Shown here one piece after another: positions 1-20,970 of a DNA stretch of 35,667 nt. The first letter of the stretch is position 1; every line of letters starts with the position of its first letter. A program made the translations under genes and the position numbers. Origin of the DNA: a virus. The notes below the pieces were generated by a model. That model had not been told where the DNA came from, searched no databases, and saw nothing but the letters and a program-made list of their open reading frames with translations. The stretch is from the UHGV virus genome UHGV-0093623. One strand, given 5' to 3'.

Positions 1-167
1 GCTCAGGCTCCAGCAGGACACGCCCCTGCATAAACAGGGGCATCAGCTCTGAACCGGGTCTGAACAAGACGATCCCCATACGCGGGGCAATTTCAGGGGT
101 CAGCAGTGCTCTCACGGTCACCTCAGCGAACGGTATTGCATGAACGCAGGAGAAAAAAATTCAGCCA

Positions 168-425
168 TCACGCAGTAAACTCCTTCACCAGCGTTTCAAA
201 CTGGCTTACCTGTCCTTCCAGTTCCGCCACGCAATCCACCAGCTCATCCACCGCCTTTTGTGTGCGGTGTTTTGCCTGCAGCAGATCACTAAGCGCCGGA
301 GTAAGCTGCTTGCGGAGCGTATCTTTTTTCACGCTCGTTTTTTCCATCTGTTCAGCACAACGAAGCATCTCCTGCGCCTGCCGACGAAGTTGTTCCGGTG
401 AAACAGTGATTGTTCTGTTGTTCAA
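168..425 (-). CDS. hypothetical 85-aa protein, last gene of the replication operon
   Basis: ORF track; apparent TTG start overlapping the DnaB-like stop by 4 bp; no recognisable motif. Confidence 0.35.
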   Translation of the reverse strand: MNNRTITVSPEQLRRQAQEMLRCAEQMEKTSVKKDTLRKQLTPALSDLLQAKHRTQKAVDELVDCVAELEGQVSQFETLVKEFTA

Positions 426-1822
426 AATAAACGCTCCGTTTTACTGCCCGACATGCGGTTATTGCTGTATCTGCGCGGATTGCCCGGCGTCATGGGTGTG
501 GAAAGAACCCGGGCACTCTCCTGGTCCACAGGCAGAAAATGTCCGTTATGAAAACGCCGGTAAATGGTCCCGAGCGTGCCATTACGCTGTTTCGTGATGT
601 TGATTTCTGCTATGCCTCTGGCCTGAGTTTCCGGGTTGTATACCTCATCCCTGTAAAGCATCAGAATGATGTCGGCATCCGCCTCGATTTCCCCGGAGTT
701 TTTCAGGTCCGAGTTCATTGGGCGTTTATTGGGTCTGGATTCCACGCCGCGGGAGAGCTGGCTCAGAGCAATCAGCGGAAAACCGCCGGATTTTGCCAGG
801 CTTTTAAGTCCCTTTGAGATTTCCCCCACCGCAAGGTCGTGACGCCCCGTGCTGCGGGTTTTAATCAGGCCGAGGTAATCGACCACCACCAGCGCCGTTT
901 CCGGGTGTTTCATCCGGTGGTGCTTCGTGGTTGCACATATCTCATCAATGGTCAGGTTTGCCTGGTCCACCATCCAGATATTACGCCCCGTCATTCGTCC
1001 CACGCCCTGCGAGAAACGCGCCCAGTCTTCATCTTCAAAACGGGCAACAGACTTAAGACGGGATACCGGCATTCCACCGGCAGCAGACACCATACGTTCA
1101 CCAATCTGGATGTTCGCCATCTCCATGGTGAACAGAAGCACGCCATGCCCCTGCTCAGTCACCTTGTCGATGATGTCCAGCGCAAGTTCGGTTTTCCCCA
1201 TCGAAGGACGGGCGGCAATGAATACCAGGTCTCCGGGCTCCATACCGCCCGTTTTTGCGTCCAGTTCATCAATACCGGTCATCAGCGCCCTGGATTTCTC
1301 CAGTCCCTGATTGCGGCATTCAACACGGTCGACCACTTCCGGAAGGACATCATCAATGTGAACCGGCTGAATGACGCCCTTTCCGGTCGACAGTGAGGCC
1401 ATCATGTTCTGCGCATCCTTCAGGGCATCCTCGGCTGCTTCACAGGTATACGCATCACGTAAATTCTGTAATGCTTCAGTCAGTGTTTTTTCTGCATCAC
1501 GCAGTGCGGCATTGCGCCGCAACGCTGCGACATAGTGCTCCAGTGAAGACTTCACCCAGGTTTTGCGTCCGGTGTCGGTAATCACCGGGGCAAGTTCCGG
1601 CATCTCATTGCACAGCAGTACGGGGTCAATGACGCCGGATATGCGAGCCTGTCTGCAAATCCCCGCGTAAATATCCCGGTACTGACGCACAAAAAATACA
1701 TCCGCCGGAAGTGTGGCCAGAATATCCATCACTTCCGGATCGGCCCCACGCAGAAAAAACGCACCGATGACAGCGCCTTCCAGGTCATCGTTACGCCATG
1801 CCGGGGTGTTCTGGCTGGTCAT
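422..1822 (-). CDS. replicative DNA helicase, DnaB family
   Basis: 466 aa; Walker A-like IAARPSMGKTELALD; DnaB-like C-terminal region; ATG overlaps the upstream gene stop (ATGA). Confidence 0.88.
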   Translation of the reverse strand: MTSQNTPAWRNDDLEGAVIGAFFLRGADPEVMDILATLPADVFFVRQYRDIYAGICRQARISGVIDPVLLCNEMPELAPVITDTGRKTWVKSSLEHYVAALRRNAALRDAEKTLTEALQNLRDAYTCEAAEDALKDAQNMMASLSTGKGVIQPVHIDDVLPEVVDRVECRNQGLEKSRALMTGIDELDAKTGGMEPGDLVFIAARPSMGKTELALDIIDKVTEQGHGVLLFTMEMANIQIGERMVSAAGGMPVSRLKSVARFEDEDWARFSQGVGRMTGRNIWMVDQANLTIDEICATTKHHRMKHPETALVVVDYLGLIKTRSTGRHDLAVGEISKGLKSLAKSGGFPLIALSQLSRGVESRPNKRPMNSDLKNSGEIEADADIILMLYRDEVYNPETQARGIAEINITKQRNGTLGTIYRRFHNGHFLPVDQESARVLSTPMTPGNPRRYSNNRMSGSKTERLF

Positions 1823-2727
1823 GCGGCAACACCTCCGATACGAGAACGGTAGCTGGGCCAGTTAAACGACAACCAGTTGCGCCCGCCATCGGTGATCCTG
1901 TCGGCAATCCGGGGACTGATGAACGCCCACAATTCTTCCGGTGAAAGGTTGCTGATCAGGATAGTTGGCAAAATACCCTCATACCGGGCATTGATAATTT
2001 CCTGCAAAATGGCCATTTCAGCCGCACTGCCAAACTGAACGCCGACTTCGTCGACAATCAGCAAATCCAGTGACGCATAATGCTCAATGACGTCATCCGC
2101 TGTTTTTTCACTGTCATTCCGCCAGCAGTTTTTCACAGCCCGGGTAAGGCGCATCACGTCGGTGATCTCCACACTGGCCAGATAGTTACGGATGATGTGT
2201 TTTGCCATTGATACCGCCAGATGATTTTTCCCGGTACCGCAACTGCCGGTCATAACAAGACTGGTACCGTTCTCCAGCATATCTGGCCAGTTCTCCGCAT
2301 AGCGGCGACAGGCCGCAAGATTTCTGGCTGCGTCAGGATTAACCTCCAGATAATTATCAAACTCGCAGTCCCGAAAACGCAGAGCAATTCCGGCGTTATC
2401 AGTCAGTTCTTCCGCCTTGAGGGACGACAGTTCCATGGTCAAATCACTGGCCTCAGCGATCAAGCAGTCAGGGCAGCATGAAATTTTTTCTCTGTCCTCG
2501 CCATTACGATCGATCCACACCAGTATATGCGTACGATATTTACCGTGTTTTTCGCAATATCCGCGACCTTCACGCATCAGGCAGGAACGATAAGGCCATG
2601 GCTTTTCGCCCTTCTGAGCAAATGCAATCTCTGCCCGTAACTCATCCATTTCTGCCCGTAACTCATCCATTCGCGCCTGTAGTCTTGTTTGTTTCTCACG
2701 TTGGTCAATCGTCATCATCGCTGTCAC
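1819..2727 (-). CDS. DnaC/IstB-like AAA+ helicase loader
   Basis: 302 aa; Walker A GSCGTGKNHLA and Walker B LLIVDEVG; Cys-rich N-terminal region; start may be GTG at 2727 or the ATG 9 bp inside. Confidence 0.8.
   Translation of the reverse strand: MTAMMTIDQREKQTRLQARMDELRAEMDELRAEIAFAQKGEKPWPYRSCLMREGRGYCEKHGKYRTHILVWIDRNGEDREKISCCPDCLIAEASDLTMELSSLKAEELTDNAGIALRFRDCEFDNYLEVNPDAARNLAACRRYAENWPDMLENGTSLVMTGSCGTGKNHLAVSMAKHIIRNYLASVEITDVMRLTRAVKNCWRNDSEKTADDVIEHYASLDLLIVDEVGVQFGSAAEMAILQEIINARYEGILPTILISNLSPEELWAFISPRIADRITDGGRNWLSFNWPSYRSRIGGVAA
2629..2672. repeat. 21-bp in-frame tandem duplication (2 copies) inside the DnaC-like gene
   Basis: ctgcccgtaactcatccatt repeated back to back; encodes MDELRAE-MDELRAE. 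Confidence 0.7.
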
Positions 2728-2728
2728 C

Positions 2729-3721
2729 TCAGAATGTCAATTTGTTACTGGATTTACCGAATTTGTCAGACATGGCTCCCAGGCCAGCCAGGACATCGAC
2801 CTGTCGCTGTCGCCCACCTCCGTGAGCGGCTGGCTGTTGCCAGTAATCTTCGAAGTGACGATCGGGTCCAAAGAACGTCGCAGCCTGCTTCACGAACTGT
2901 GTGCCGGTATTTCCTGTAGCACGTACCCAGGCGGCATACCGCTTCACGCCATCAAGCATGGTCTCCGGTTTTATTCCCTCCCTGATACGGGCTTTCCAGG
3001 CTTTGAAGGCTGCTGACTTGGAATTGCCACCAGCACGTTTGGGATATTCCTGCCAGGCCTGTTCAAATTCCGGTGAATATTCCTGTCGGGCAGAACGCGC
3101 TGGCGCAGACGCGTCAGCGGATGCATCAATAGTGTTTTTAGTCTCCGTTGTAATCTCTGTAGTAATCTCTGTATTTGTATCAACATTCGGCGTATCCCCT
3201 GTTCCGTTATGACGTCGGGGGGTGTTCCGTTTTAACGTAATAGCTGTATCGCTGATTGCATTATTGCTGTTACTTTCTGGCGAAACAGAAGAAGGTGTGG
3301 TGATGGCCGCAATTGCCTGTGGGTTGATCCCGACAAACAAAATATTGCTGCATTTCACCCCATCGAGCATTTCCACCGTGCGTAAATCCAGAGTAATAAA
3401 CCCTGCATCGCGCAGACGCTTCAGCGCATCTGCGGTTTCCCTTTTCCCGAAACCAAACTGCTCAGCAAACGCCTGGTAGCTTCTTTGCAGTTTGTCGCCC
3501 TGAAAACGCTTGCGATATCCCAACAACGCTCCGGTGTGCTCATCCCTGACCTCTGTCGGGCGGTACCAGTAAACGATCTCTGAAAGCAGAGCGATAGCCG
3601 TCGCATCCGGACGCCCACTGGGTAGTCGAATATATTTCCACCAGTTCGCAGGTGTAACATTGCCGGAAATATTAATTTGACCAATAGCCATAACTTCCGG
3701 TGTGGGGGCGTAACGGCTCAT
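2729..3721 (-). CDS. phage replication initiator / replisome organiser (lambda O-like position)
   Basis: 330 aa immediately upstream of the loader and helicase genes; two-domain layout with a low-complexity linker carrying tandem DNA repeats; family call is by position and general resemblance. Confidence 0.6.
   Translation of the reverse strand: MSRYAPTPEVMAIGQINISGNVTPANWWKYIRLPSGRPDATAIALLSEIVYWYRPTEVRDEHTGALLGYRKRFQGDKLQRSYQAFAEQFGFGKRETADALKRLRDAGFITLDLRTVEMLDGVKCSNILFVGINPQAIAAITTPSSVSPESNSNNAISDTAITLKRNTPRRHNGTGDTPNVDTNTEITTEITTETKNTIDASADASAPARSARQEYSPEFEQAWQEYPKRAGGNSKSAAFKAWKARIREGIKPETMLDGVKRYAAWVRATGNTGTQFVKQAATFFGPDRHFEDYWQQPAAHGGGRQRQVDVLAGLGAMSDKFGKSSNKLTF
3146..3175. repeat. 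iteron-like tandem 12-bp repeat (gtaatctctgta x2) inside the initiator gene; candidate origin element
   Basis: perfect tandem pair encoding EITTEITT in the linker; lambda ori also lies inside O. Confidence 0.4.
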
Positions 3722-4017
3722 ACAACCTCCTTCCGCGGCATGAGAATTGTGTAGCCACGCGCAGGTTGTAGTCTGGCTTTTGCATCAATAGTAAGCGTTG
3801 CAATTTTTCGGATATGAAGATAACCAGCTCTTTCCAGTGCCAGGGTTTCCCTGAATATCGCTTGCTTAGAACAACAGCAGAAATCAGCAAGCACCTGATG
3901 ATCAATAACTCTCTCGCCTTCACCGTCTGAAGAACCCGACATCAAAACACGCAACATAATTAGGCGCTGAATCGGGTTATCGAAAGCACATCCGCACACA
4001 AACTGAAAACAGTTCAC
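3718..4017 (-). CDS. hypothetical 99-aa protein with probable HTH
   Basis: ORF track; apparent GTG start overlapping the upstream stop; 4-bp overlap with the initiator gene. Confidence 0.45.
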   Translation of the reverse strand: MNCFQFVCGCAFDNPIQRLIMLRVLMSGSSDGEGERVIDHQVLADFCCCSKQAIFRETLALERAGYLHIRKIATLTIDAKARLQPARGYTILMPRKEVV

Positions 4018-4238
4018 GCCACACCTCCCAGACGCTTAAACATTTTTCCAGACAGAAATACCGCCAGAGGGTAACTGATGGTGTAGCTACGCCCCTGTAG
4101 TTCGCACACGACTTTCTGGCTTTCAGCGTTGACTAGGCAAACCCGCAGAACGTGACCGTTGCTGGTGGCGAACCACTGCCCCACACGGGGGCAACGGTTG
4201 TATCGGTGATACAGGGAATTAACGATGTGGCGGATCAT
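4014..4238 (-). CDS. hypothetical 74-aa protein
   Basis: ATGA overlaps on both sides. Confidence 0.4.
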   Translation of the reverse strand: MIRHIVNSLYHRYNRCPRVGQWFATSNGHVLRVCLVNAESQKVVCELQGRSYTISYPLAVFLSGKMFKRLGGVA

Positions 4239-4429
4239 GGACGCACCTCCACCGTAGTTACGTATTTAACCGGGCTACCTTTCATTGAGATGGTTTCACA
4301 CATCTCTGCCGCTTTCAGTTCCGCTGTTTTTCTGGATTTATAGCGACGGTGCCAGACAGATACATCCGTGCGAACTGATACATCGTTTCTGTATTCCGTA
4401 GTGGAGATGATGATTTCGTAACTAATCAT
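4235..4429 (-). CDS. hypothetical 64-aa protein
   Basis: ATGA overlaps on both sides. Confidence 0.4.
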   Translation of the reverse strand: MISYEIIISTTEYRNDVSVRTDVSVWHRRYKSRKTAELKAAEMCETISMKGSPVKYVTTVEVRP

Positions 4430-4977
4430 GGGCGAACCTCCTTGTCAGAACCATTCAGCCTGGAATCAACAAGTGCAGCGCCAAAAACAGCATCACCAAC
4501 ACGGTCGTACAGTTTGCTAGCCAGCGGAGATTCAACGGCCTTAAGCATTGGATAAAGCTGGCTTGTCCAGATTTGATGGATTTCACGCAAATGCAGGTAT
4601 ACGCCTCTGGCGTTTCGTGCGACAGCTGACATATCAACCGCGTCAGCACCAGATAAATTCTTCTCCATCTGGTTAAAGGCGTTGATGTATGCCTCTTTGA
4701 ACCGGGCTGCACGTTTGCCAGTAAAGCCCATAGCAAGGAACGCGAAGCCATCGCGGGTGATTTGATAGCAAGGTAGTTTGCGGCCTGTGCAATCGGTGTA
4801 ATCACTGGGCTGAAAATTCAGCTCAGTGAATTCAACAGAGCACTCAAGCGTCTGGATTTTTTGAATAACGTTTTTGTGCTGCTTGCAGAAATATTCGGCA
4901 ACGACCAAAGAAGAGGTAACAGCCTTCCCATGGATAACATCAATTTTAGGGTGAGTTTGGGTAGGGGTGGTTGCCAT
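4426..4977 (-). CDS. Rha-family phage regulatory protein (start at internal ATG 4977; the ORF stays open to 5274)
   Basis: Rha-like motifs GKAVTSSLVVAEYFCKQHKNVIQKI and YQITRDGFAFLAMGFTGKRAARFKEAY; GAGGA 7 nt upstream of ATG 4977; upstream 100 codons are low-complexity. Confidence 0.7.
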   Translation of the reverse strand: MATTPTQTHPKIDVIHGKAVTSSLVVAEYFCKQHKNVIQKIQTLECSVEFTELNFQPSDYTDCTGRKLPCYQITRDGFAFLAMGFTGKRAARFKEAYINAFNQMEKNLSGADAVDMSAVARNARGVYLHLREIHQIWTSQLYPMLKAVESPLASKLYDRVGDAVFGAALVDSRLNGSDKEVRP

Positions 4978-5296
4978 AGTGACATCCTCATGTGCGAATT
5001 TTGAAAACTCACCACATGGGACGCCAATCACAGAGGTGGTGAGACGTACAGGGTTGGCGTAACCGGTCGCACATGACCCCGGCGCATCTTTCGATGCCCC
5101 TGCACGCCCCACCATAATTTGGATGTGAGGAAACGTGCGCAAAAAAACCGCTGAAGCGCGGTTATGCGCATGTGCGAATTTCAGGACGCCAATCCCGGCA
5201 CCCGCTTTATAAGGTGCGGAGACAGTGTAACGTCCCGAAATTGCAGAATCAATATTTGGTCTTGAAATGATCATATAGCTGCTGATATCTTTAGAA

Positions 5297-5382
5297 CTGT
5301 TCTTGGATGTTTCGGAGCCGTTTTATGCGAAACAGCTCCCCGTTATTGATGTTGAGTGAGCCGGGTTACTCCCGGCTTTTTT
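5297..5382 (+). ncRNA. candidate short antisense RNA (OOP-like) ending at the terminator
   Basis: weak promoter-like TTGAAA-N18-TATCTT near 5262-5291 plus the plus-strand terminator; no plus-strand CDS. Confidence 0.2.
5359..5382 (+). terminator. intrinsic terminator oriented for plus-strand transcription (gccggg-ttact-cccggc + T7)
   Basis: GC stem followed by 7 T on the plus strand; on the minus strand the run precedes the stem, so it is not a minus-strand terminator. Confidence 0.55.
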
Positions 5383-6090
5383 TCACCGCTGCCAACCAAT
5401 AACCTGAAATAACCCCATTTTCGGGTGATACCAGCGAGTCCCTCGCGGTTCTGCTTCCTCCATAACCCGATAAAAAGCAGCCATAAACGGTTCCACAGCA
5501 ACAATTGCGCGACGTGACAACAATCCGTCCGGCGTCATGAACTCATGGGTGTCTGTAGGAATCTGATAGGCGTTCACCAGATTGCGGCATTTATCATCTG
5601 ACAAACCGGTTTTTGCTTTCAGTTGGCGATATCCGGCATAGCCCTCACGAATAGTGCCCTTTTTAATTTGCTCGACTGTTTCAGCAACGTGGCTGACTTT
5701 TTCTTCCACCTGAGTGATCCGTTTCTGCTGACGAACTGCTTCAAGAGCCATCGCGGCAACCATTTCGATTTCGCTCATTGGCTTACGGATCTGTTCTTCC
5801 AGTTCGCGCCAGCGATCTACCAGGCGAGCAGTGAATTCAGGACAGAGCTGTGCGACGACAATGATGCTGTCGCGCTTACCTTGTTCTCCTTCAAACAGGT
5901 AATGCTCATATTGAACTTTAAAACCTAAGTTATTGATTCTTTCGGAAACCTCAATTTGAGGAGACCGGACAACGCCACCTTTGGCTAATGTTTCAATAGT
6001 GCGTTTCACATTGTCATGACGTTTACCCACCAGCTCTGCGATCTCAACGCTGGTCATGGATGCTTTGCCGTTAAAAATTGCGGTGTTCAT
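5383..6090 (-). CDS. Rha-family phage regulatory protein
   Basis: 235 aa; N-terminal SVEIAELVGKRHDNVKRTIETL motif; AGGAGA RBS. Confidence 0.8.
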   Translation of the reverse strand: MNTAIFNGKASMTSVEIAELVGKRHDNVKRTIETLAKGGVVRSPQIEVSERINNLGFKVQYEHYLFEGEQGKRDSIIVVAQLCPEFTARLVDRWRELEEQIRKPMSEIEMVAAMALEAVRQQKRITQVEEKVSHVAETVEQIKKGTIREGYAGYRQLKAKTGLSDDKCRNLVNAYQIPTDTHEFMTPDGLLSRRAIVAVEPFMAAFYRVMEEAEPRGTRWYHPKMGLFQVIGWQR

Positions 6091-6314
6091 TGTTGGTCTC
6101 CTGTGGGCTTGTCATCTTCTGTATTCGCTAGACTTGGGTGTGTATATGGAATGCTCGGATCCAGATGACAAAGAATGGCAACATCCTCCGGAACACCTCG
6201 CGTTTTCCACTTTCCAACACCTTGACTGCCACGAGGCCTTCCTTTCTTTGGGAACCTGCGACCAATAGCGGCATTGGTTTTAAATTGAAATTTTAATATT
6301 TCATAAAGGGTCAT
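6087..6314 (-). CDS. hypothetical 75-aa ORF in the cro position
   Basis: ATG about 30 nt downstream of the predicted rightward promoter; stop overlaps the Rha ATG (ATGA); protein is Lys/Arg/Gly-rich with no obvious HTH. Confidence 0.3.
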   Translation of the reverse strand: MTLYEILKFQFKTNAAIGRRFPKKGRPRGSQGVGKWKTRGVPEDVAILCHLDPSIPYTHPSLANTEDDKPTGDQQ

Positions 6315-6330
6315 TCTTTAGTCTCACACC

Positions 6331-6418
6331 AGATACTTTGTTATCCAACGATGTTAACCGCGGGAATCCAAAGTATCAAGAAATTCTGTTACTTTAGTAT
6401 CAACAGCCATGAGAGGAG
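6331..6418. promoter_or_regulatory. divergent early promoter/operator region (OR-like)
   Basis: minus-strand TTGATA-N17-TAACAT (plus 6374-6379 and 6351-6356); three copies of a GTATCA-core motif (6332-6340 inverted, 6369-6377, 6396-6404); cI RBS GAGAGGAG at 6411-6418. Confidence 0.5.
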
Positions 6419-6425
6419 AAGAAAA

Positions 6426-7082
6426 ATGAAGTCTTTAGGTGAACGTCTCATCAACGCACGGCAAAAAGCTGGGTTAACACAAGATGCGTTGGCTAAAAAA
6501 GCTGGGATCACCAGAGTTGCAATCAGTAAAGCCGAGCAAGGCCTTACAAAAAGTTTCAACGGTGACACCCTTTTTAAAGTTGCAGCTGCACTGCGGTGTT
6601 CACCGCAGTGGCTTCAGAACGGAGATGAAAAAGATAAGCATTGGGAAAATAATGTTAAGAGCTGCCCACAGAGAGACACAGCACACTCTTACCCTGTAAT
6701 TAACTGGGTTCAGGCAGGATTATTCGCAACTTCTGGTGATGACTACAACATGTATGATCAGGATAATTGGAGGCATTCTGTAAAATACGCTGGTGAGAGG
6801 GGGTTCTGGCTGGAAGTGCACGGAGACTCAATGACTTCGCCCGTAGGAATAACATTTCCTGAAGGAATGTCGATCCTTGTCAACCCAGATAAAGAAGTTT
6901 TTTCAGGGTGTTACGTCATCGCCAGAAAAAAATCCACCAATGAAGCAACATTCAAAAAATATATTTCTGACATGGGAAAGGCGTTTCTAAAGCCCCTTAA
7001 TCCACAATATCCAATCATAGAAATGGACAATGATTGCGAAATAGTAGGTGTTGTGGTTGATGCCAGGTGGGATATTTTCTGA
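6426..7082 (+). CDS. CI-like prophage repressor (HTH_XRE + S24 LexA-like peptidase)
   Basis: HTH LTQDALAKKAGITRVAISKAEQG; C-terminal GDSM and downstream Lys (ARKK); start chosen at ATG 6426 with RBS. Confidence 0.85.
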   Translation: MKSLGERLINARQKAGLTQDALAKKAGITRVAISKAEQGLTKSFNGDTLFKVAAALRCSPQWLQNGDEKDKHWENNVKSCPQRDTAHSYPVINWVQAGLFATSGDDYNMYDQDNWRHSVKYAGERGFWLEVHGDSMTSPVGITFPEGMSILVNPDKEVFSGCYVIARKKSTNEATFKKYISDMGKAFLKPLNPQYPIIEMDNDCEIVGVVVDARWDIF

Positions 7083-7108
7083 CCAGACACAAAACACAAA
7101 AAGAAACC

Positions 7109-7181
7109 AAAGTATCAAAAATCACTTGCCACACCTTGATACCTTAGTTACCATAAAACAAAGTTCGTAACTGAGGTATCA
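7109..7181. promoter_or_regulatory. OL-like operator/promoter region downstream of cI
   Basis: GTATCAA at 7112-7118, inverted TTGATAC at 7136-7142, GGTATCA at 7175-7181; TTGCCA-N17-TACCAT at 7126-7154. Confidence 0.4.
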
Positions 7182-7185
7182 TCTC

Positions 7186-7689
7186 ATGATCAATAAAGCT
7201 ACAACTCTTGACTGTCTCGAAGAACTGAAAAACCTCGGCAGCCTCATTACACTAATAGCAAAAGCAACACCTGATGCTACGCTCTCTAGCGATATAGAGT
7301 CATGCGCAGGACTGGCATGGGATATGACAAATAGCATATCCAGAAAGCTATCGTCAGCAATGCTTTTACAGAACAAAAATTCTGCAATCAACAACCGTCT
7401 TCGCACCCAACGCGAAGCCTGCGGCTTAACAACCGCCGAACTCGCCAGGCTGCTCGATCTCGATGAAGAAATTATCATCCAGTGGGAGAGCGGAGAGTAT
7501 GAACCAACTATCAGTATGCTTATCCCACTGGCAAATATTCTTGGCTGCGATCCGATGTGGCTGTTAACTGGTGAGGTTACTCCTCCGGAGCAACCAAAAA
7601 GTGAGGAGCAGCAACACCATGACGCATCTCAACAAGTTTGCCCCTTATCTCGCGAAGCTCTTCTGCGGAAGAACCAATACCAATGGTGA
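7186..7689 (+). CDS. HTH_XRE-domain protein (167 aa), first gene of the leftward operon
   Basis: HTH segment LTTAELARLLDLDEEIIIQWESGEYEPTISMLIPLANILGCDPMWLLTGE; GAGGT RBS; true start could be an internal Met. Confidence 0.6.
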   Translation: MINKATTLDCLEELKNLGSLITLIAKATPDATLSSDIESCAGLAWDMTNSISRKLSSAMLLQNKNSAINNRLRTQREACGLTTAELARLLDLDEEIIIQWESGEYEPTISMLIPLANILGCDPMWLLTGEVTPPEQPKSEEQQHHDASQQVCPLSREALLRKNQYQW

Positions 7690-7817
7690 CATAATCGCCG
7701 CTTCGCCCTTCAAGGTACATGCGAACATTTTTATCAATCATTGCGGAAACAGTCTCAATATGAAAACACTTCTGAGACTCGCTATATAGCAGAACATATA
7801 AGTCAGCTGAGGAAGCC

Positions 7818-8183
7818 ATGAAAAAGTTCGAAAACATAACTGTTCTCCATGTTGATGACTTTGATTATACAAACCCGGAACTTCTCCCGGAGGTTGTAAA
7901 GGCAATAGATGTTGCCGATATAGTGATTAGAGAAAAGAGAATTGTCAAAAACAGGCTCGCATGCACTTCAGGAGCAATGACAGAAACAACCTCACAGCAA
8001 GATAATTACGAAGGCATTTGTCTGGAGCCTGATTCATTTGCGGTAAATGTTTATCATTTATTGCATGCAACACAGGTATTACATATGTCCAGTAATCACG
8101 AAACGAAAACACTCGGCAGCGAAATTCTGAGTTTTGCATGTGAGTATACAAAAGCTGCTGCCGAAAAAGAATTAGCGCAATAA
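7818..8183 (+). CDS. hypothetical 121-aa protein
   Basis: GAGGA 4 nt upstream of ATG. Confidence 0.6.
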   Translation: MKKFENITVLHVDDFDYTNPELLPEVVKAIDVADIVIREKRIVKNRLACTSGAMTETTSQQDNYEGICLEPDSFAVNVYHLLHATQVLHMSSNHETKTLGSEILSFACEYTKAAAEKELAQ

Positions 8184-8377
8184 CAACAAATATGCCCTGA
8201 ACGTTTATTGCGGTTTTATCGCCGGGGATTGTTACAACCTTAATCCACAGGAGGCTTTATTGTGACTTTTATAAAGAATATGGCATCACACAAGACCGCC
8301 TGCCTTATTGCACAATACGGTGAAAATTACATGCATATTGCCTGCTTATTTCTGCGTAAAGCATACGGGAGATAATA

Positions 8378-8578
8378 ATGCATCAGAAAACAGCAGAACA
8401 CGAACAAACCAGAGTATTGCTGACCATCAAAAACGGGAAAGTAATATTCATTCGCCATGTTCATGACGATGAACTTGTAGGAACTCTTTCAACATTCCTG
8501 TTTATTGCAGAAAGGGCAGGATATGACGTTATTGCACCAGCAGATGAAGATGAAGATGAAGATGAAGATGAGGAATAA
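8378..8578 (+). CDS. hypothetical 66-aa protein with poly-acidic C-terminus (DEDEDEDEE)
   Basis: GGGAGA RBS; 5 nt before the next gene. Confidence 0.55.
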   Translation: MHQKTAEHEQTRVLLTIKNGKVIFIRHVHDDELVGTLSTFLFIAERAGYDVIAPADEDEDEDEDEE

Positions 8579-8583
8579 ATATC

Positions 8584-9165
8584 ATGCAATACGATGAATT
8601 CCAGGCTGAAGCAACAGCCAATGGTATACGAACTGGCAGTATGACGATTGATTATCACGACGCCATACGTCGTCTGGATGCCGGAGAATTCGATACTCCT
8701 AATGTGCGAGGTTTACGTATCCTTCAGTGTCTGGCGCAAGCCGACGAAGCAGGATTACTGGGTAAACTTCCGGTTGAGATGAAGGTTGCTCAGTGGCGAT
8801 GGTTGTATGTGACGACATTCATCAACGAAGAAGAAGACAAGAACGGCACAATTGATATCCTGAATGAACACGGAACAACTGAACACGCCGTGGTATATAA
8901 CGGGATGTATGGGTTTATGACGATATATCCCGGCCCCATTCGATTTGCCTTACAACAGTATATTGAATGGAATTTAATTCAAAAATACGGCGAAGCTGAA
9001 GGAATGGGAAGAGCGCTGTTTCTTTATCAGAAAATGCTCACTACTTCCCCTGATAAAGGTTTCATTCTTTCAGATATGGGTCGAGAAGGGCTTGAAATCC
9101 TTCTGGATGAAATTATTAACGAAATGAATACTCATGGCATGCAATCCGAAACAGATATTAAGTAA
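8584..9165 (+). CDS. hypothetical 193-aa protein
   Basis: GAGGA RBS inside the upstream gene tail. Confidence 0.6.
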   Translation: MQYDEFQAEATANGIRTGSMTIDYHDAIRRLDAGEFDTPNVRGLRILQCLAQADEAGLLGKLPVEMKVAQWRWLYVTTFINEEEDKNGTIDILNEHGTTEHAVVYNGMYGFMTIYPGPIRFALQQYIEWNLIQKYGEAEGMGRALFLYQKMLTTSPDKGFILSDMGREGLEILLDEIINEMNTHGMQSETDIK

Positions 9166-9175
9166 AAGGGACCAC

Positions 9176-9424
9176 ATGACCGTTATCGAGTATATCCAGG
9201 AAAATCCAGATTGCAGTAGAGAAGATATATCCCTCGCACTTGGAAGAAGCGCAACTTCTATCAGTAATGAATTATCACGGTTATTGTGGAATGGGTTAAT
9301 AGTACGAACTGGAGAAAAAAACAAAATGATTCTGTACTGCGTAAACAATCTGCCGTTTGGATACAGCAATCCCCTAAGTGTTATGTTCAACCAGTTACTT
9401 AAACAGGTAAGAAATGGCAACTGA
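9176..9424 (+). CDS. hypothetical 82-aa protein, possible winged-helix DNA binding
   Basis: AAGGGA RBS 5 nt upstream of ATG 9176. Confidence 0.5.
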   Translation: MTVIEYIQENPDCSREDISLALGRSATSISNELSRLLWNGLIVRTGEKNKMILYCVNNLPFGYSNPLSVMFNQLLKQVRNGN

Positions 9425-9731
9425 CTCACAACTAACCATAGAAACGGCCCTGAATGTCGGCCTGGCGCTCCTTGGTTATTTTTACATCGTGTTCTGCAGC
9501 GGACGGTGGCTGTCGCTGTTGTTCCTGAAAAAATGGAATAAACGCCGTAAGCAGGATGAACGCCAGAAGGCAATGAATGCGTTTTCCGAAGCCTTCGGAA
9601 TTGACGGCATGGAACCAGGGGATCCAGCTCGCGCAATCAGCAGAGGGGGTGTAGTAATCCTTGTATATCGGAGTGAAGAGAAAAATGACGATCACAAAAC
9701 AACGAGTAGAAAAAATCATATATCGCCATGA
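9414..9731 (+). CDS. hypothetical single-pass membrane protein (105 aa)
   Basis: hydrophobic segment ALNVGLALLGYFYIVFCSGRWLSLLF; overlaps neighbours on both sides. Confidence 0.4.
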   Translation: MATDSQLTIETALNVGLALLGYFYIVFCSGRWLSLLFLKKWNKRRKQDERQKAMNAFSEAFGIDGMEPGDPARAISRGGVVILVYRSEEKNDDHKTTSRKNHISP

Positions 9732-9999
9732 AATGGGACTGAACAGCGATGTCACTGCCGAAGAGGTTTATGACCTGGCTGTACTGGCGCTGAATTTATC
9801 AAATATCGCAAACCTGAAGCGATACGAGCTTGATATGGATGGTTGCGACTCGTGCGGTCAGGATTGTGGCGCAGATATGACTGAAGATCCTGATGGTGAT
9901 TATGTCCTGTTTGATGACGTGGTTAAGTTGTTTGAATTTGATACAACCACTCAAAAGTTAGAAATCCCGGCAAAGGAGGCTGCCAGTGAGCAAGATTGA
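9685..9999 (+). CDS. hypothetical 104-aa acidic protein
   Basis: ATG 9685 preferred over the TTG at 9661. Confidence 0.5.
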   Translation: MTITKQRVEKIIYRHEMGLNSDVTAEEVYDLAVLALNLSNIANLKRYELDMDGCDSCGQDCGADMTEDPDGDYVLFDDVVKLFEFDTTTQKLEIPAKEAASEQD

Positions 10000-10168
10000 C
10001 TATCAGGCACTGCGCGAGGCGGCGGAACAGGCAACGCAAGATGAATGGGTAGCATATATTTGCCGGGTCATAACGGCATTTATCCTGCGCGCACGTCTGA
10101 GGGTAGGCATTGCGGATACTTTATTGACTGGCCTGGCGTCTGTCAGGGGCGGGAGAGCATCAACATGA
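9986..10168 (+). CDS. Ea22-like N-terminal module, truncated (60 aa)
   Basis: GTG start preceded by AAAGGAGG; N-terminus MSKIDYQALREAAEQA parallels the gene at 10668; stop overlaps the next ATG. Confidence 0.45.
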   Translation: MSKIDYQALREAAEQATQDEWVAYICRVITAFILRARLRVGIADTLLTGLASVRGGRAST

Positions 10169-10671
10169 GCATCAGAACCTACGCAGTGAATTGCAATGAC
10201 GCATGGCTAAACACCGAAGGTGATGACATCTCCGGCTCATACGTTAAGTACAAAGACCATCAGGAAGTGGTTGCCGCTCTTGAGGCCAAGTGCGCGGCGC
10301 TGGCAGCGGAGAATGCGGGAATAAAGTCTGCAATTCCAGAATCACGGGATATTGAAGATGACAATGACAATATGGATGACGTATCTCTCGCGGAAGACTT
10401 CGGGTTCAATCATGCAATAGAACGGATGAGGAGACAGATACCTGAAACGCCAACCACTGATGCTTTCCTGGCTGAAGTCCGGGCGCAGGGGGTGGATGCT
10501 GCTATAGAAGCTGCAAAAAATCTGGTGGCCCAAGAATATGAGTATAAGGATTTCAAAGCGGCGCAGAGTGATTGCTGTATGTACCCTGGTTCAGACCTGG
10601 TAGGGAAGGTTGAAATGACTGAGTGGTTAGTTGACTTTGCTGCCCAGCTTCGCAAAGGAGGCAACCAGTGA
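10165..10671 (+). CDS. hypothetical 168-aa acidic protein
   Basis: ATG 10165 with GGGAGAG upstream; ATGA overlap with the preceding ORF. Confidence 0.5.
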   Translation: MSIRTYAVNCNDAWLNTEGDDISGSYVKYKDHQEVVAALEAKCAALAAENAGIKSAIPESRDIEDDNDNMDDVSLAEDFGFNHAIERMRRQIPETPTTDAFLAEVRAQGVDAAIEAAKNLVAQEYEYKDFKAAQSDCCMYPGSDLVGKVEMTEWLVDFAAQLRKGGNQ

Positions 10672-11333
10672 GCGAAATTAATTACCAGGCACTGCGTGAG
10701 GTGGCGGAACGTGCAATTCCAGCAATGGAACGCCTGTTAATGTTGCCAGCTGATGATGACTTGTTAAGTGAACAGGAACTTAAAGATTACGGTGTGGATA
10801 TTGATGCGCTCAACGCCTTCAAATTTCTGACCGGACCAGAAACCGTGCTGGCACTGCTGGATGAACGGGAAAGAAACCTGCAATACATCAAAAGCCGCGA
10901 TCAGGAGAACGAGGATATTGCGCTAACGGTAGGGAAGCTGCGTGTTGAGCTGGAAGCAGCAGAGAACAACCTTATTGATAGTGAATGCCATGTTGCTGAA
11001 CTGGAAGAAGCGCTACGCGATAAGCAGGCGTTACTTGAAGCCTCAGAAAAGCGCATAGCAGAACTGGAAGCACGGGAAATAAAACCAGCCAAAGGCGAAG
11101 TTCTTGTCGTTGTATCTGGTTTTACTGGTTGCGGAAAAAGCGCCATTGCCGGGGAAATAGAAATCGCGATGAAGGCTATTGGTGTACCGGTTAAGTGGAC
11201 TAATGGCGATGCAGAAAAGCGCATGACTGGCGCTGACTGGCTGACAGCGATTGAGATGTACAAACCAACTGTGCGCATCGTGGAAGTTAATGTGCCACGC
11301 GCCGCTGGCATTCGCATCAAAGGAGGTGAGTAA
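10668..11333 (+). CDS. Ead/Ea22-like protein
   Basis: GTG start with AAAGGAGG RBS; N-terminus MSEINYQALREVAERA; TVLALLDERE motif; coiled-coil centre. Confidence 0.65.
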   Translation: MSEINYQALREVAERAIPAMERLLMLPADDDLLSEQELKDYGVDIDALNAFKFLTGPETVLALLDERERNLQYIKSRDQENEDIALTVGKLRVELEAAENNLIDSECHVAELEEALRDKQALLEASEKRIAELEAREIKPAKGEVLVVVSGFTGCGKSAIAGEIEIAMKAIGVPVKWTNGDAEKRMTGADWLTAIEMYKPTVRIVEVNVPRAAGIRIKGGE

Positions 11334-11509
11334 TGCGTGTGGCATGTATCGGCTTGTTACCGTACCCGACTCGTTTTTGGGCTTCTGCGCTAATTGCAAA
11401 GCCACATGTCCTGATGGCTGACAACATCATCCCGGCACCAAAGCGCCGCCATACCGGTATTGCATCGGCACGACGAGCAGCAAAGAGACGCAGGAGAGCA
11501 AAACGATGA
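11333..11509 (+). CDS. hypothetical 58-aa basic protein
   Basis: not in ORF track (under 60 aa); AGGAGG RBS 6 nt upstream; TAATG and ATGA overlaps with flanking genes. Confidence 0.4.
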   Translation: MRVACIGLLPYPTRFWASALIAKPHVLMADNIIPAPKRRHTGIASARRAAKRRRRAKR

Positions 11510-11697
11510 AAAACCGTAAAGCAAAGATTCTGTTAGTTCGTAGAAACGCTCCTGGCGTCTGGCAGTGGGTGAGACTCAGCAACCGACGGATGGGGTTAAT
11601 GAAACATTACGGGATGATGGATTGTGGTTTTTGCAAAAAGCCCAGCGCGGCGCAAAACCGCTGGAAAAACCACTGTCGCATTAATAAGGAAAACTGA
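11506..11697 (+). CDS. hypothetical 63-aa Cys/His-containing protein
   Basis: AGGAGA RBS; ATGA overlap. Confidence 0.5.
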   Translation: MKNRKAKILLVRRNAPGVWQWVRLSNRRMGLMKHYGMMDCGFCKKPSAAQNRWKNHCRINKEN

Positions 11698-11698
11698 T

Positions 11699-11962
11699 AT
11701 GGCAACTTTGACAAAAAAAGAACAGGCATGGTTGAACGAATTACAGGACGTTCTTGATCGCTGCCCATCACCGAAAAAAATTGGTTTTTACACCATTGGC
11801 GATAAAAGCATTTACCTGTATGACCTGCGCCGCATGGATGAAATCATGGAGGCTCTTGATAATCGTTCGTCAATGGATTGGTGTGTTGCTGTCCATGATA
11901 TGAATGCAGGGTTTGATGAAAAGATTTTGTTCCCCTCATCAGTTGAAAGCACTGCGGGTTAA
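11699..11962 (+). CDS. hypothetical 87-aa protein
   Basis: ATG 11699 with AAGGA upstream. Confidence 0.55.
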   Translation: MATLTKKEQAWLNELQDVLDRCPSPKKIGFYTIGDKSIYLYDLRRMDEIMEALDNRSSMDWCVAVHDMNAGFDEKILFPSSVESTAG

Positions 11963-11972
11963 GGAGTAACAC

Positions 11973-12140
11973 ATGACCACTATTACCAAAGAACGTATTG
12001 AATTGTTCATTAAAAACCCGCTTGAAAACGGGCTTACCCGTGGTGAACAAATGGAACTGGCACGGATTGCGCTGGCATCGCTGGAAGCAGAGCCGGTTGT
12101 GTTCTGGTTTGAAAAATATCAAGAAGGGGCTACGGCATGA
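11973..12140 (+). CDS. hypothetical 55-aa protein, paralogous at its N-terminus to the next gene
   Basis: not in ORF track; AAGGAG RBS 6 nt upstream; MTTITKERI vs MTTFTREQL; ATGA overlap with 12137. Confidence 0.5.
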
Positions 12141-12481
12141 CGACTTTTACCAGAGAGCAGTTAATAGCTCACGCAGAGGAGACTATTGAAGCACAGAGAC
12201 TGTGCATACCGGGCACAATCGACCATGACATCATCCGCACATATAAGATGGATATTGCTGTTCTGGAAATCGCACTGGTATCGCTGGCAGCAGAGCCAGC
12301 CGGTAAATTGCATGAATACAAACCAGTGGGATATCAGCGTCTGGTCGATGAGTTAACCATGCTGGTAAAGCAGTTAACCTGGCAACTGAGGAAAGCGAAG
12401 CCAGACTGCAAATTACCGGATAAGGCGATGAGTTATCTGGAGCGGAACGGACTGATAAGCGTGGAGGATATTTTACGATGA
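12137..12481 (+). CDS. hypothetical 114-aa protein
   Basis: ORF track; ATGA overlap. Confidence 0.6.
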
Positions 12482-12561
12482 CCTGGCCTGAAGCATTAAC
12501 AACGGTAGGAATTGCGATGGCGGTGGCGCTGGTGGTGTATTCGATTTGCCGCTGGGGATAA
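12478..12561 (+). CDS. candidate 27-aa hydrophobic peptide ([27 protein letters not shown])
   Basis: ATGA overlap with the upstream stop; GGAGGA 9 nt upstream; single predicted TM helix. Confidence 0.3.
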
Positions 12562-12659
12562 AAACGGTTTGCGGGAAAAGGAGAGTTAAGTAGAATTGCA
12601 GCGGGTGCTTGAGGCTATCTGTCTCAGGCATGAACACCAAAAGGCAGATAGAGAAAAGC

Positions 12660-14510
12660 CCCAGTTAACATTACGCGTCCTGCAAGACGCTTAACATTAA
12701 TCTGAGGCCAATTTCATGCTAGACACATGTAGGTTAGCCTCTTACGTGCCGAAAGGCACGGAGAAGCAGGCTATTGTTAACACCAAGCTGTAATGTCCCC
12801 TTTGAACCATTCTAAAATGTCCCCAGACAATTCTCTGGGGGATTTTTCATGATCAAAGAGACTGTTACGATGAGTCATAAGGAACTCCACCGACTTCAGA
12901 TTATTCAGGAACAAGCTGCGGCACGCATTGGCATTTCTATTCGGCAGGTTAAACGTCTGGTGCAACGGTATAGAAATGAAGGGCCTTCTGCTCTGGTTTC
13001 CCACCGACGTGGAAAGCGTCCTAATAATTCCTTTTCTACTGAATTCAGAGCAACAGTAATTTCACTCCTCAAAGGCCGTTACGCTGATTTTGGACCTACG
13101 TTTGCGTGCGAAAAATTGCGCGAGATACACGGTTTATCTTTATCCGTTGAAACTCTCAGAAAGTGGATGATAGAAGAGGGGTTATGGCGTGAACGCCGTC
13201 GTAAAATTGCCCGTATATATCAACGCCGCATGCGACGACCATCTTACGGTGAACTGATCCAGATTGATGGCTCACCTCATGACTGGTTTGAAAATCGAGG
13301 CCCCAGATGTACACTGATCGTTTTCATTGATGATGCCACCAGTGCGTTGATGGCGTTGCGTTTTGTGCCTGCTGAAACAACCCGGGCTTACATGGAAACC
13401 CTCCGGGGTTACCTTAATGATCATGGCGTACCGCTCGCTCTCTACTCTGATAGACACAGTATATTCAGGGTAAATAACCCAGAGCGGGAAGGTGAGCTGA
13501 CCCAGTTCACTCGTGCGATAAAGACACTGGGCATCGAGCCAATCCATGCCAACAGCCCGCAGGCAAAAGGGCGGGTAGAGCGCGCCAATCAGACACTACA
13601 GGACAGGCTGGTCAAAGAAATGCGGCTTCAGAATATCAGTGATATTGAAACAGCAAATGCATGGTTGCCGACCTTTATTGAAGCCTATAACAACCGGTTC
13701 GCTACGTCGCCTCGTACTACTGATAATGCTCATCTTGATGTGCACCATTCTGAAGAGGAACTGGGTTATATCTTCAGCCTACAGGCGAAGCGCGTTCTGT
13801 CTAAAAATCTCACTTTCCAGTACAAAAGCAGTGCGTTTCAGGTACGCAGTGAGGGCCGGGGATATCGACTTAGGCATTCGGTTGTTACTGTATGCGAGAA
13901 CTTTGACGGTGAAATTAACGTTCTGTATGACGGGAAAGCGCTGGGCTGGGAAAAGTATGTTGATGGCCCGGAGCCTATACCACTGGATGATGAAAAGAGT
14001 GTCCATGAACGAGTGGATAATGCCCGTATTGATTTACGCTCAAAATACTATGTTAAACCTAAAGCTGACCATCCCTGGCTTACGCGCCGAACGCAAAGTC
14101 ATCAGCAAGTTAAGCCCCCGAAGTTACCTAAAAAGAAGCCTGATCCCGATAAAAAAGATTGAAACCAAGATCGATTCGGTTGAGTGCATATCCATTCATA
14201 GGGTAGATTCTTAAGTCGCGTTTCTGGTGTTCATTTTCGGGTGGTTTGTTACTTGTTTTACCGGGGATATGCCAGAAACGCGCTGAGTCAGTCTGGGCGG
14301 TGCGCGTAATGAGGCGTTATGGTAAATAGCCTATGCTAATGTCCGCTAAGAGCAAGAAGCGGAAGTTGGCAGTTTTGTGGACTGTCCCCACAAAAGTGAC
14401 TACAGAAATAGTTGCAATTCATAATTGATCATGGGTTGTCAGTTAAACTCGTGGCGATTTAAATAGACTAATTGGGAGTGCGTCCATTACTTATATCTTG
14501 TAATGTTAAC
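12660..14510. mobile_element. insertion sequence (approximate extent) carrying the DDE transposase
   Basis: candidate 12-bp terminal inverted repeat AGTTAACATTAC near 12663-12674 and its reverse complement near 14499-14510; boundaries not verified. Confidence 0.25.
12849..14162 (+). CDS. DDE-type transposase (N-terminal HTH + integrase-core fold), IS481/ISNCY-like
   Basis: 437 aa; N-terminal HTH region, central acidic residues in IQIDGSPHD and FIDDATS; family assignment tentative. Confidence 0.8.
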   Translation: MIKETVTMSHKELHRLQIIQEQAAARIGISIRQVKRLVQRYRNEGPSALVSHRRGKRPNNSFSTEFRATVISLLKGRYADFGPTFACEKLREIHGLSLSVETLRKWMIEEGLWRERRRKIARIYQRRMRRPSYGELIQIDGSPHDWFENRGPRCTLIVFIDDATSALMALRFVPAETTRAYMETLRGYLNDHGVPLALYSDRHSIFRVNNPEREGELTQFTRAIKTLGIEPIHANSPQAKGRVERANQTLQDRLVKEMRLQNISDIETANAWLPTFIEAYNNRFATSPRTTDNAHLDVHHSEEELGYIFSLQAKRVLSKNLTFQYKSSAFQVRSEGRGYRLRHSVVTVCENFDGEINVLYDGKALGWEKYVDGPEPIPLDDEKSVHERVDNARIDLRSKYYVKPKADHPWLTRRTQSHQQVKPPKLPKKKPDPDKKD

Positions 14511-14598
14511 TATCAGAAATGATACAAAGATAATATGTCTTTAAAGAAAAGGCTGATGGCGAAAAGTGGCCCGATGAGGGCCACAATACGGCTGTCAC

Positions 14599-14931
14599 TT
14601 AGACGTAAATATCAATGGTGCCAGCGGTATTTGTATCGTCTTTTTTCTCTTCTTTTTTATCAGGCTGAACTGTCGCGTCTTCATTCTTTTTCTCTGCCTG
14701 CTGCCTTAACAACTGCTCCAGTTGAGCCCAGAGGCTTTCAATTTGCTTCTGTACCAATGCAGCCATTTCTTTTTTCTGCTGTGTCGTCATCCCCTCTTCC
14801 GATGAGATTTTCCCAAGCTTTTCAGTCAGCACCTGAATTTGTCTTGTGATTTTGGCTATTTCTGATGTTCCTTCCGGGGCGGAGTTGTTTGAAATAACGG
14901 TTGAGGTATTTCCCTGAATTGTGACAGACAT
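14599..14931 (-). CDS. flxA: FlxA-like protein (110 aa)
   Basis: protein recognised as Qin-prophage FlxA-like; preceded by a consensus sigma-28 promoter. Confidence 0.8.
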   Translation of the reverse strand: MSVTIQGNTSTVISNNSAPEGTSEIAKITRQIQVLTEKLGKISSEEGMTTQQKKEMAALVQKQIESLWAQLEQLLRQQAEKKNEDATVQPDKKEEKKDDTNTAGTIDIYV

Positions 14932-14954
14932 AGATTTCTCCTTTTAAAAAAGCA

Positions 14955-14981
14955 CTATCGGCATGCACAAAAAAATCTTTA
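14955..14981 (-). promoter_or_regulatory. sigma-28 (FliA) class 3 promoter TAAAGATT-N11-GCCGATAG
   Basis: reverse complement of plus 14955-14981 matches the TAAAGTTT-N11-GCCGATAA consensus; sits about 25 nt upstream of the flxA ATG. Confidence 0.7.
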
Positions 14982-15133
14982 ATCGTATTTCTTGTGTCAT
15001 TAATTGTTTGATGTTCAGATTGTTTTCCTCGCGGGCTGGCGCGCCTCAGAAAGTAAAGCTTGTTGACAGGGGTAAACGTTCGGCAATAATTTTCTGCCGC
15101 ATGCGGGTGTTGCATAAAACGTGTTACGTTCCT

Positions 15134-15439
15134 TTATCGACAGGTCAGGTCACCGCTCACCCGCCGACGAGAAAGCAACACTGACATGCTAAAGCAAAAA
15201 ATAGATGAATAAGTTGAGTTGTGCATATGTAGCCTGACCGTCACAAAGTATATGGTGTCTGTACCAGTAAGATGATGGCCGGACTCTTTAAAAACGAGCT
15301 GACCTGCACAATACAGGATGGACTTAGCAATGGCTGCTCCTGGCACAAAGCGGACAGTGATCACCGTTCTTACGACTACTTTCTGACTTCCTTCGTGACT
15401 TGCCCTAAGCATGTTGTAGTGCGATACTTGTAATGACAT
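15134..15439 (-). CDS. hypothetical 101-aa protein (YdfV-like position)
   Basis: ORF track; position between flxA and relB as in Qin; no motif. Confidence 0.35.
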   Translation of the reverse strand: MSLQVSHYNMLRASHEGSQKVVVRTVITVRFVPGAAIAKSILYCAGQLVFKESGHHLTGTDTIYFVTVRLHMHNSTYSSIFCFSMSVLLSRRRVSGDLTCR

Positions 15440-15452
15440 TTGTAATTACAAG
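15427..15452 (+). promoter_or_regulatory. relBE operator/promoter inverted repeats
   Basis: cttgtaatgacatttgtaattacaag directly upstream of the relB ATG. Confidence 0.7.
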
Positions 15453-15463
15453 AGGTGTAAGAC

Positions 15464-15703
15464 ATGGGTAGCATTAACCTGCGTATTGACGATGAACTTA
15501 AAGCGCGTTCTTACGCCGCGCTTGAAAAAATGGGTGTAACTCCTTCTGAAGCGCTTCGTCTCATGCTCGAGTATATCGCTGACAATGAACGCTTGCCGTT
15601 CAAACAGACACTCCTGAGTGATGAAGATGCTGAACTTGTGGAGATAGTGAAAGAACGGCTTCGTAATCCTAAGCCAGTACGTGTGACGCTGGATGAACTC
15701 TGA
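15464..15703 (+). CDS. relB: RelB antitoxin
   Basis: 79 aa, MGSINLRIDDELKARSYA... recognised as E. coli RelB. Confidence 0.95.
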   Translation: MGSINLRIDDELKARSYAALEKMGVTPSEALRLMLEYIADNERLPFKQTLLSDEDAELVEIVKERLRNPKPVRVTLDEL

Positions 15704-15990: not shown

Positions 15991-16061
15991 ACCAAAGCAT
16001 GACATCTCTGTTTCGCACCGAAGGTGACACTTCTGCTTTGCGTTGACAGGAGAAGCAGGCT

Positions 16062-16217: not shown

Positions 16218-16285
16218 GAGACCCGGCGGGGGAGAAATCCCTCGCCACCTCTGATGTGGCAGGCATCCTCAACGCACCCGCACTT

Positions 16286-16312
16286 AACCCGCTTCGGCGG
16301 GTTTTTGTTTTT
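16286..16312 (+). terminator. intrinsic terminator after hokD
   Basis: aacccgc-ttcg-gcgggtt followed by a T-run. Confidence 0.6.
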
Positions 16313-17030: not shown

Positions 17031-17031
17031 C

Positions 17032-20966: not shown

Positions 20967-20970
20967 TCCA

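Follow-up and report, generated by a model that had tools for sequence, protein, structure and literature searches.

Six copies of a 14-bp imperfect dyad lie in the two intergenic regions that flank the cI gene of a lambdoid E. coli prophage, and they are most likely the operators of its immunity switch, which is of the phiP27 type, read by the CI protein of the same cassette. The protein encoded in the cro position probably shares these sites with CI. The arrangement as a whole is very probably a standard lambdoid tripartite OR plus OL, with an operator specificity that is apparently undescribed in the searchable literature, in which (the phiP27 genome paper lying outside that scope) we found neither a description of phiP27-type operators or of the site sequence nor binding data. 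We here give coordinates for the six sites, their consensus (GAWAC-N4-GTWTC) and three candidate promoters. This immunity type is present in phiP27 and several Stx1a-/Stx2a-converting phages, and prophages of Klebsiella, Salmonella, Citrobacter, Yersinia, Photorhabdus and Providencia have related versions of it.

The window, that is, the whole 35.7-kb stretch of DNA that was analysed, is a lambdoid E. coli prophage with an early region that is 94.7% identical to that of phage phiP27 and 83–84% identical to that of a group of Stx1a-/Stx2a-converting phages. A cI-type repressor gene of 218 aa (6426–7082, + strand; Pfam HTH_3 and Peptidase_S24) and a previously unannotated gene of 75 aa in the cro position (6087–6314, − strand) are divergent and 111 bp apart. 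The end of the 75-aa gene is overlapped by a Rha/Roi-type gene (5383–6090, − strand), with the replication genes further left, and on the other side a gap of 103 bp separates the end of cI from a 167-aa gene with a Pfam HTH_3 domain (7186–7689, + strand), the first gene of a PL-like operon. Given the gene strands around 6331–6418, the repressor is rightward and the lytic early operon leftward in window coordinates; the original prediction had set a ‘rightward operon’ opposite cI, and this part of it has to be reversed.

Between the divergent genes, three copies of a shared motif had been predicted, gatactttg at 6332–6340 (which is CAAAGTATC on the minus strand), caaagtatc at 6369–6377 and agtatcaac at 6396–6404, and all three words are present at these places. 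When the copies are aligned with their flanks they give a 14-bp imperfect dyad, G-W-W-A-C-N4-G-T-A-T-C, and the consensus of the sites is G-A-W-A-C-(A/T-rich N4)-G-T-W-T-C. The original remark was that they are not obviously palindromic 17-mers; their form is a 14-bp imperfect dyad instead. Site A, in the OR1 position nearest the cro-like gene (6332–6345; GATACTTTGTTATC), has an unchanged offset in 10 loci that represent 7 genera. Site B, in the OR2 position (6364–6377; GAATCCAAAGTATC), overlaps the -35 hexamer and spacer of a minus-strand promoter, and its CCAAAGTATCAA is invariant in all eight loci compared. Site C, in the OR3 position nearest cI (6388–6401; GTTACTTTAGTATC), overlaps a candidate cI maintenance promoter. 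Three related sites between the CI and Cro-position genes, overlapping the lytic promoter, support the tripartite operator that was originally proposed. A possible fourth OR site at 6310–6327 was rejected on account of its low score (1.9) and its lack of conservation in the Stx phages.

A second set of three sites, absent from the original prediction, lies downstream of cI (7103–7180) and is OL-like. Site D (7103–7116; GAAACCAAAGTATC) is upstream of the -35 of a PL-like promoter and conserved in related loci, site E (7138–7151; GATACCTTAGTTAC) is in the spacer and -10 of the same promoter and invariant in four E. coli phages, and site F (7167–7180; GTAACTGAGGTATC) is downstream of the PL-like start, where it overlaps the ribosome-binding site of the 167-aa gene. 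Pooling of 76 half-sites gives (T/A)T-G-A-W-A-C, with G1, A4 and C5 in 93–99% of them, and the centre of the pooled sites is 88% A+T. In phage Stx2_12E129, site A is a perfect palindrome (GATACTTAAGTATC), which fixes the dyad form. Judged by its length, each 14-bp dyad would accommodate one dimer of a CI-type repressor with a helix-turn-helix of the 434/P22 type.

The minus-strand promoter of the original prediction, TTGATA (6379–6374)-N17-TAACAT (6356–6351), was also returned by a consensus scan. It is the putative PR-equivalent lytic promoter (6351–6379, − strand), its -35 sits inside site B and the AA flank of that site, and it would start near 6344 (−) and drive the cro-like gene, roi/Rha and the replication genes. 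All 10 related loci have TTGATA-N17-TAnnnT with a spacer of exactly 17 bp, the sequence of the -10 being variable. Relative to the putative start, site A spans approximately +1 to +12, with its centre at about +5.5, and the centre of site B is at about −26.5. The PL-equivalent promoter, TTGCCA-N17-TACCAT (7126–7154, + strand), would start near 7161 (+) and drive the 167-aa HTH_3 gene and the genes after it. The form TTGnnn-N17-TAnnnT is likewise found in 10/10 loci, with site E at the same position within it, and relative to the putative PL start E is centred at about −16.5, F at about +12.5 and D at about −51.5.

For cI, the candidate PRM-equivalent is an extended -10, TGtTACTTT (6387–6395, + strand), which overlaps site C in its left half and centre, so that C lies on the -10 of this promoter, and transcription from it may start near 6402 (+). 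TGnTACTTT is invariant in 10/10 loci, including the T immediately 5′ of site C, a base that is not conserved beside the other sites. It was chosen because it is the only -10 that places the start upstream of the ribosome-binding site in loci with a short leader. A cI promoter with site B at −42 was tried and rejected: there is no -10-like hexamer at 6400–6405, and in the short-leader loci the start would fall inside the ribosome-binding site. The putative PR and PRM starts are approximately 58 bp apart, and the centre of site B is about −31 to −37 from the putative cI start, compared with −42 in lambda. Hence, a lambda-style activating contact is doubtful, as is positive autoregulation of cI by such a contact, and the assignment of the cI promoter is uncertain; both this assignment and the specific role given to each site are tentative, with at best about an even chance of being right.

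The sites and their geometry are conserved well beyond E. coli. Homologues of the 75-aa protein (61–95% identity) were found in Klebsiella, Citrobacter, Salmonella, Yersinia, Photorhabdus, Providencia and Xenorhabdus, and every homologue locus compared has a divergent HTH_3+S24 repressor with the recognition helix (V/I)(T/S)RVAISKAE(Q/L)GLTK, the divergent cI/cro-like arrangement recurring in all related loci. In 10/10 loci (7 enterobacterial genera) the OR spacing is 32 bp from A to B and 24 bp from B to C, while the sequence between the sites diverges. The mean information is 1.81 bits for the half-site columns and 1.68 bits for the central four, against 0.84 bits for non-site columns. Of the OL sites, D and E are kept in all related loci, and F is present in the E. 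coli phages, Photorhabdus and Providencia but absent in the Klebsiella, Citrobacter, Salmonella and Yersinia loci. E. coli phages with the same cI have conserved sites. The cassette is present in 195 of 5,426 complete E. coli genomes (approximately 3.6%), never more than once per genome, and the same immunity cassette was found in Stx1a-, Stx2a- and Stx2e-converting phages; among deposited phages, the N-terminal domain of this CI is limited to phiP27 and a set of Stx1a/Stx2a phages. Distant CI relatives (28–45% identity), which have other HTH types at the N-terminus, lack the motif; they are of no use for footprinting but can be taken as a negative control.

The link to the repressor is seen in the heteroimmune phage PhiR49_2, for which blastn gives 99% identity to the window on either side, up to 6103 and from 7399 onward, with no match between. 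These mosaic breakpoints delimit an immunity cassette (6104–7398) that contains OR and OL, the cro-like gene and cI, and codons 1–71 of the 167-aa gene. In PhiR49_2 this segment encodes a Cro and a CI that are unrelated to those of the window; the phage is without a cluster of the GAWAC-N4-GTWTC motif and carries dyads of its own in the corresponding place, for example ATCAA-N7-TTGAT. Half-sites also vary with the recognition helix of CI, as seen in two relatives with an N-terminal domain of the same type. The CI of Serratia sp. Ag1 (helix SRMAISKIEMG, 51% identity) is accompanied by the half-sites TAAAC-N4-GTTTA and that of a metagenomic locus, L050 (helix SRVTISKIELG), by RTTTC half-sites, both in the same three-site layout, so that the covariation of helix and half-site rests on two variant specificities only. 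Taken together, the conservation across genera, the loss of the sites on cassette swap and the helix-linked change of the half-sites connect the sites with the immunity cassette and, within it, with CI. On a larger scale, window positions 1–12561 match PhiR49_2 at 96.5% on the opposite strand, the swapped immunity cassette excepted, and the adjoining 12.4 kb (12556–25000) match a different phage, PhiR42_1, at 99.7%. Both phages are from E. coli ECOR13, and the adjoining matches indicate a mosaic junction near 12560.

From its sequence, CI is a natural hybrid in which a DNA-binding domain of the 434/P22 type is joined to a C-terminal domain of the lambda type. The N-terminal HTH_3 domain, with a recognition helix of approximately TRVAISKAEQG, matches 434 Cro (E=1e-8), P22 C2 (E=1.4e-8) and the 434 repressor (E=2e-4). 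The C-terminal S24 autopeptidase is part of a match to lambda cI (3bdn) with E=9e-34 over residues 12–215, which covers the VQAG cleavage site, the GDSMT serine and the TFKK lysine. The predicted cleavage site is Ala97-Gly98, with Ser135 and Lys177/178, and A97, G98, S135, K177 and K178 are invariant among relatives. With the lambda-like C-terminal domain intact, RecA-dependent self-cleavage and dimer–dimer contacts are reasonable expectations.

The 75-aa protein in the cro position has no Pfam or NCBIfam match, but it is predicted to have an all-alpha Cro fold of the P22/N15 type. Its family has a basic loop of nine residues, FPKKGRPRG, between predicted helices 2 and 3, and the residues P22, G25 and R28 are invariant. 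Across loci with differing half-sites (GTATC, GTTTC) the protein is 61–95% identical and its SQGVGKW is invariant; in Serratia, the start of the Cro homologue (read by eye) accompanies GTTTA half-sites. Such conservation of Cro despite differing half-sites is unusual and is not predicted by strict Cro/CI co-specificity. The 167-aa protein is encoded by the first gene of the PL operon, the position of N in lambda, and PHROG 4836 labels its relatives ‘CII-like regulator’. The PhiR49_2 breakpoint at 7399 coincides precisely with the beginning of its HTH domain at residue 72, so its N-terminal 71 residues travel with the cassette and its DNA-binding domain is common to the heteroimmune phages. There is no terminator between cI and the 167-aa gene, which may therefore be read through from the cI promoter in lysogens.

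It is unlikely, but worth setting out, that the switch is wired differently from that of lambda, with overlapping back-to-back promoters, a cI promoter embedded in site C and a Cro that reads other bases than CI. Site B would then lie over the -35 region of the cI promoter, CI could not activate its own synthesis by the lambda contact, and cI expression would follow from relief of promoter competition together with negative autoregulation. The Cro-position protein, in turn, may recognise the A/T-rich centre, or the inner bases that the sites have in common, and not the positions that determine specificity.

That the sites serve a regulator other than CI appears improbable. The candidates are the Cro-like protein alone, which is encoded inside the same cassette and has a predicted DNA-binding fold; the 167-aa protein, which has an HTH_3 domain; and a host protein such as IHF, the consensus of which is WATCAANNNNTTR (core WATCAA), its first part being fitted by TATCAA. 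However, the Cro-like protein is nearly unchanged where the half-sites change, and it is the CI helix that changes with them; a Cro that shares the sites with CI is in any case part of the main explanation and not a competitor to it. As for the 167-aa protein, its HTH domain is encoded beyond the swapped cassette, and PhiR49_2, which is without the sites, has this domain at 99% DNA identity; this makes the protein an unlikely reader of them. A site for a host factor would not vanish with the cassette, and the IHF assignment was rejected on sequence as well: sites B, C and D have TATCAA without the TTR element, in place of which they have GAAATTC, CAGCCA and AAATCA, respectively.

Another reading, which we regard as very improbable, is that the repeats are promoter elements only, kept because several promoters are packed into these regions, and that no repressor binds them. 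GTATCAA is the reverse complement of TTGATAC, in which a -35-like TTGATA is embedded, and at site B the scanned promoter has this TTGATA as its -35. In addition, a candidate -10 falls on the middle of site C, and there is a -10 that overlaps with site E. Yet the same dyad is seen at sites A, D and F, none of which overlaps a -35 or -10 hexamer, and the partner half-sites GATAC, GTTAC and GAAAC are not promoter-like and are conserved nevertheless. Furthermore, all sites vanish with the cI/cro cassette, although a heteroimmune phage also needs promoters, and promoter function alone leaves the variation of the half-sites with the CI helix unaccounted for. Operators for CI, some of them superimposed on promoter elements, remain the preferred explanation for all six sites.

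Short words are a poor guide to the sites. In the window, AGTATC is not enriched (12 found versus 9.6 expected), and the raw enrichment of GTATCAA and of CAAAGTATC (1 mismatch) across the window is not significant. In simulations, a random window as large as this one is expected to have approximately 30 6-mers with three occurrences in 88 bp, and the expected number of 9-mers with three occurrences in 800 bp is approximately 1.1. Given that such clusters of short words are common by chance, the argument rests on the 14-bp dyad pattern and its conservation. The pattern GWWWMNNNNGTATC, a degenerate one that was written after the sites had been seen, has 6 matches versus 0.66 expected in 35.7 kb, a number reached by 0/100 shuffles, and its six matches are sites A–F, all in the two intergenic regions flanking cI (0.6% of the window). 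The original prediction had asked whether the motif occurs at similar density elsewhere in the window; it does so only at 7103–7180, which is the expected OL-like operator and not background.

As this pattern was defined post hoc, two less circular matrix tests were run. A matrix trained on A–C alone finds E and D as the best out-of-sample positions, with scores of 18.4 and 17.6, the next position scoring 11.2. With a symmetrised matrix built from six other genera, sites A–F rank 1–6 of approximately 35,650 positions, with scores of 11.3–21.7 (site D having the top score, 21.7) and the next position at 9.6, although some circularity remains in this ranking, given that the training sites in the other genera were chosen with the same consensus. 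Chance similarity of short A/T-rich intergenic words, for which the expected number of 6-mer and 9-mer repeats and the unenriched AGTATC would speak, is effectively refuted by the confinement of the structured pattern to so small a part of the window, by the externally trained matrix that puts A–F as its top six, and by positions and spacing that are fixed in 7 genera while the spacers diverge.

Further along the PR operon, downstream of cro-roi, the region 4975–5274 looks like an RNA-controlled antirepressor module of the P1 ImmI / Gifsy-1 isrK type. Rfam returns gathering-level matches on its minus strand to isrK (5141–5217) and C4 antisense RNA (5032–5119). These matches are inside an over-long ORF (4426–5274) with an N-terminal ‘Ash’ Pfam match that covers the same DNA, and the frame with the Rha domain (antirepressor-like) probably starts at the ATG at 4977. 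The 9-mer CATGTGCGA is repeated at 4989, 5067 and 5169. If the similarity holds, the antirepressor module would be a second layer of immunity control.

Some other features of the window were recorded along the way. In phiP27, an extra + strand gene, L13 (3803–4474; 223 aa, unknown function), is inserted between roi/Rha and the cro-like gene, whereas the two have a 4-bp overlap in the window. A G+C-rich hairpin with a run of seven T's after it (GCCGGGTTACTCCCGGCTTTTTTT; 5362–5385, + strand) reads as an intrinsic terminator; it adjoins the stop codon of the minus-strand roi/Rha gene, and there is no obvious + strand gene end there. At 12603–12775, 19621–20013 and 22523–22909 (+ strand) there are a sok antitoxin RNA, of a hok/sok-type module, and two thermoregulator leaders of the cspA type, the two leaders implying two cold-shock protein genes on the phage. 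A small ORF (8378–8578, + strand) ends in alternating Asp/Glu (DEDEDEDEDEE), and its DNA is a simple GA-rich repeat.

From the placement of the sites we infer how CI might bind them and in what order, and what part Cro may play. In the lysogen, CI on site A (at approximately +5) and site B (over the -35 and spacer) would block leftward PR, and this block would silence the replication genes as well as the cro-like gene, roi/Rha and the ant-like gene. Downstream of cI, CI on sites E and F, aided by D, would block the PL-like promoter. Through its lambda-like C-terminal domain CI would bind adjacent sites cooperatively, and at high concentrations it would occupy site C and so stop its own synthesis, the part played by OR3 in lambda. 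SOS induction would come from RecA-stimulated cleavage at Ala97-Gly98, and after induction the Cro-like protein would bind the same sites and turn down cI and the early promoters.

The control of induction in these Stx phages now becomes testable. In addition, the natural half-site series GTATC to GTTTC to GTTTA, with matching helix changes, offers material for the study of shifts in repressor specificity.

Compared with lambda, the divergent cI and cro genes around approximately 110 bp with three imperfect dyads, which overlap PR and the cI promoter, are alike, and so is the second three-site operator at PL, downstream of cI in its transcriptional direction. The C-terminal domain of CI is clearly homologous to that of lambda and has the Ala-Gly, Ser and Lys of the self-cleavage mechanism, whereas the N-terminal domain is of the 434/P22 HTH_3 type. 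The sites differ in length and sequence, being 14 bp (5-N4-5) with GAWAC here and 17 bp with TATCACC in lambda, and in their spacing, which is 32 and 24 bp here and 24 and 23 bp in lambda. In lambda the PR and PRM starts are 82 bp apart; here the putative starts are closer (approximately 58 bp) and site B is not at −42 of the cI promoter. Other differences are a cI leader with a ribosome-binding site, an OL–OR distance of approximately 750 bp instead of 2.4 kb, and a first PL gene that encodes an HTH_3 protein and not N.

With 434 and P22 the prophage shares a homologous N-terminal DNA-binding domain of CI, although the C-terminal domain is closer to lambda's than to that of either. The CI helix TRVAISKAEQG resembles the recognition helix of P22 C2, NVAISQWERS, the predicted Cro fold is of the all-alpha type of P22 and N15, and the 434 operator is likewise 14 bp long, with conserved outer bases and an A/T-rich centre. 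The half-sites differ, however, being GAWAC here, ACAA in 434 and TTAAG in P22, and the phages should therefore be heteroimmune. No 434 or P22 record is found among the phage records with this CI N-terminal domain.

The Stx phages 933W and H-19B are similar in that they have lambdoid early regions in which multiple CI operators control induction. The numbers of operators differ: 933W has three OR and two OL sites and H-19B has four OR sites (PMC8065619), compared with three OR and three OL sites predicted here. The repressors are different alleles, and among the phage records with this CI N-terminal domain there is none of 933W or H-19B. Conceptually, the switch described here adds nothing beyond the lambda paradigm, but it is useful for annotation and for work on the induction of Stx phages.
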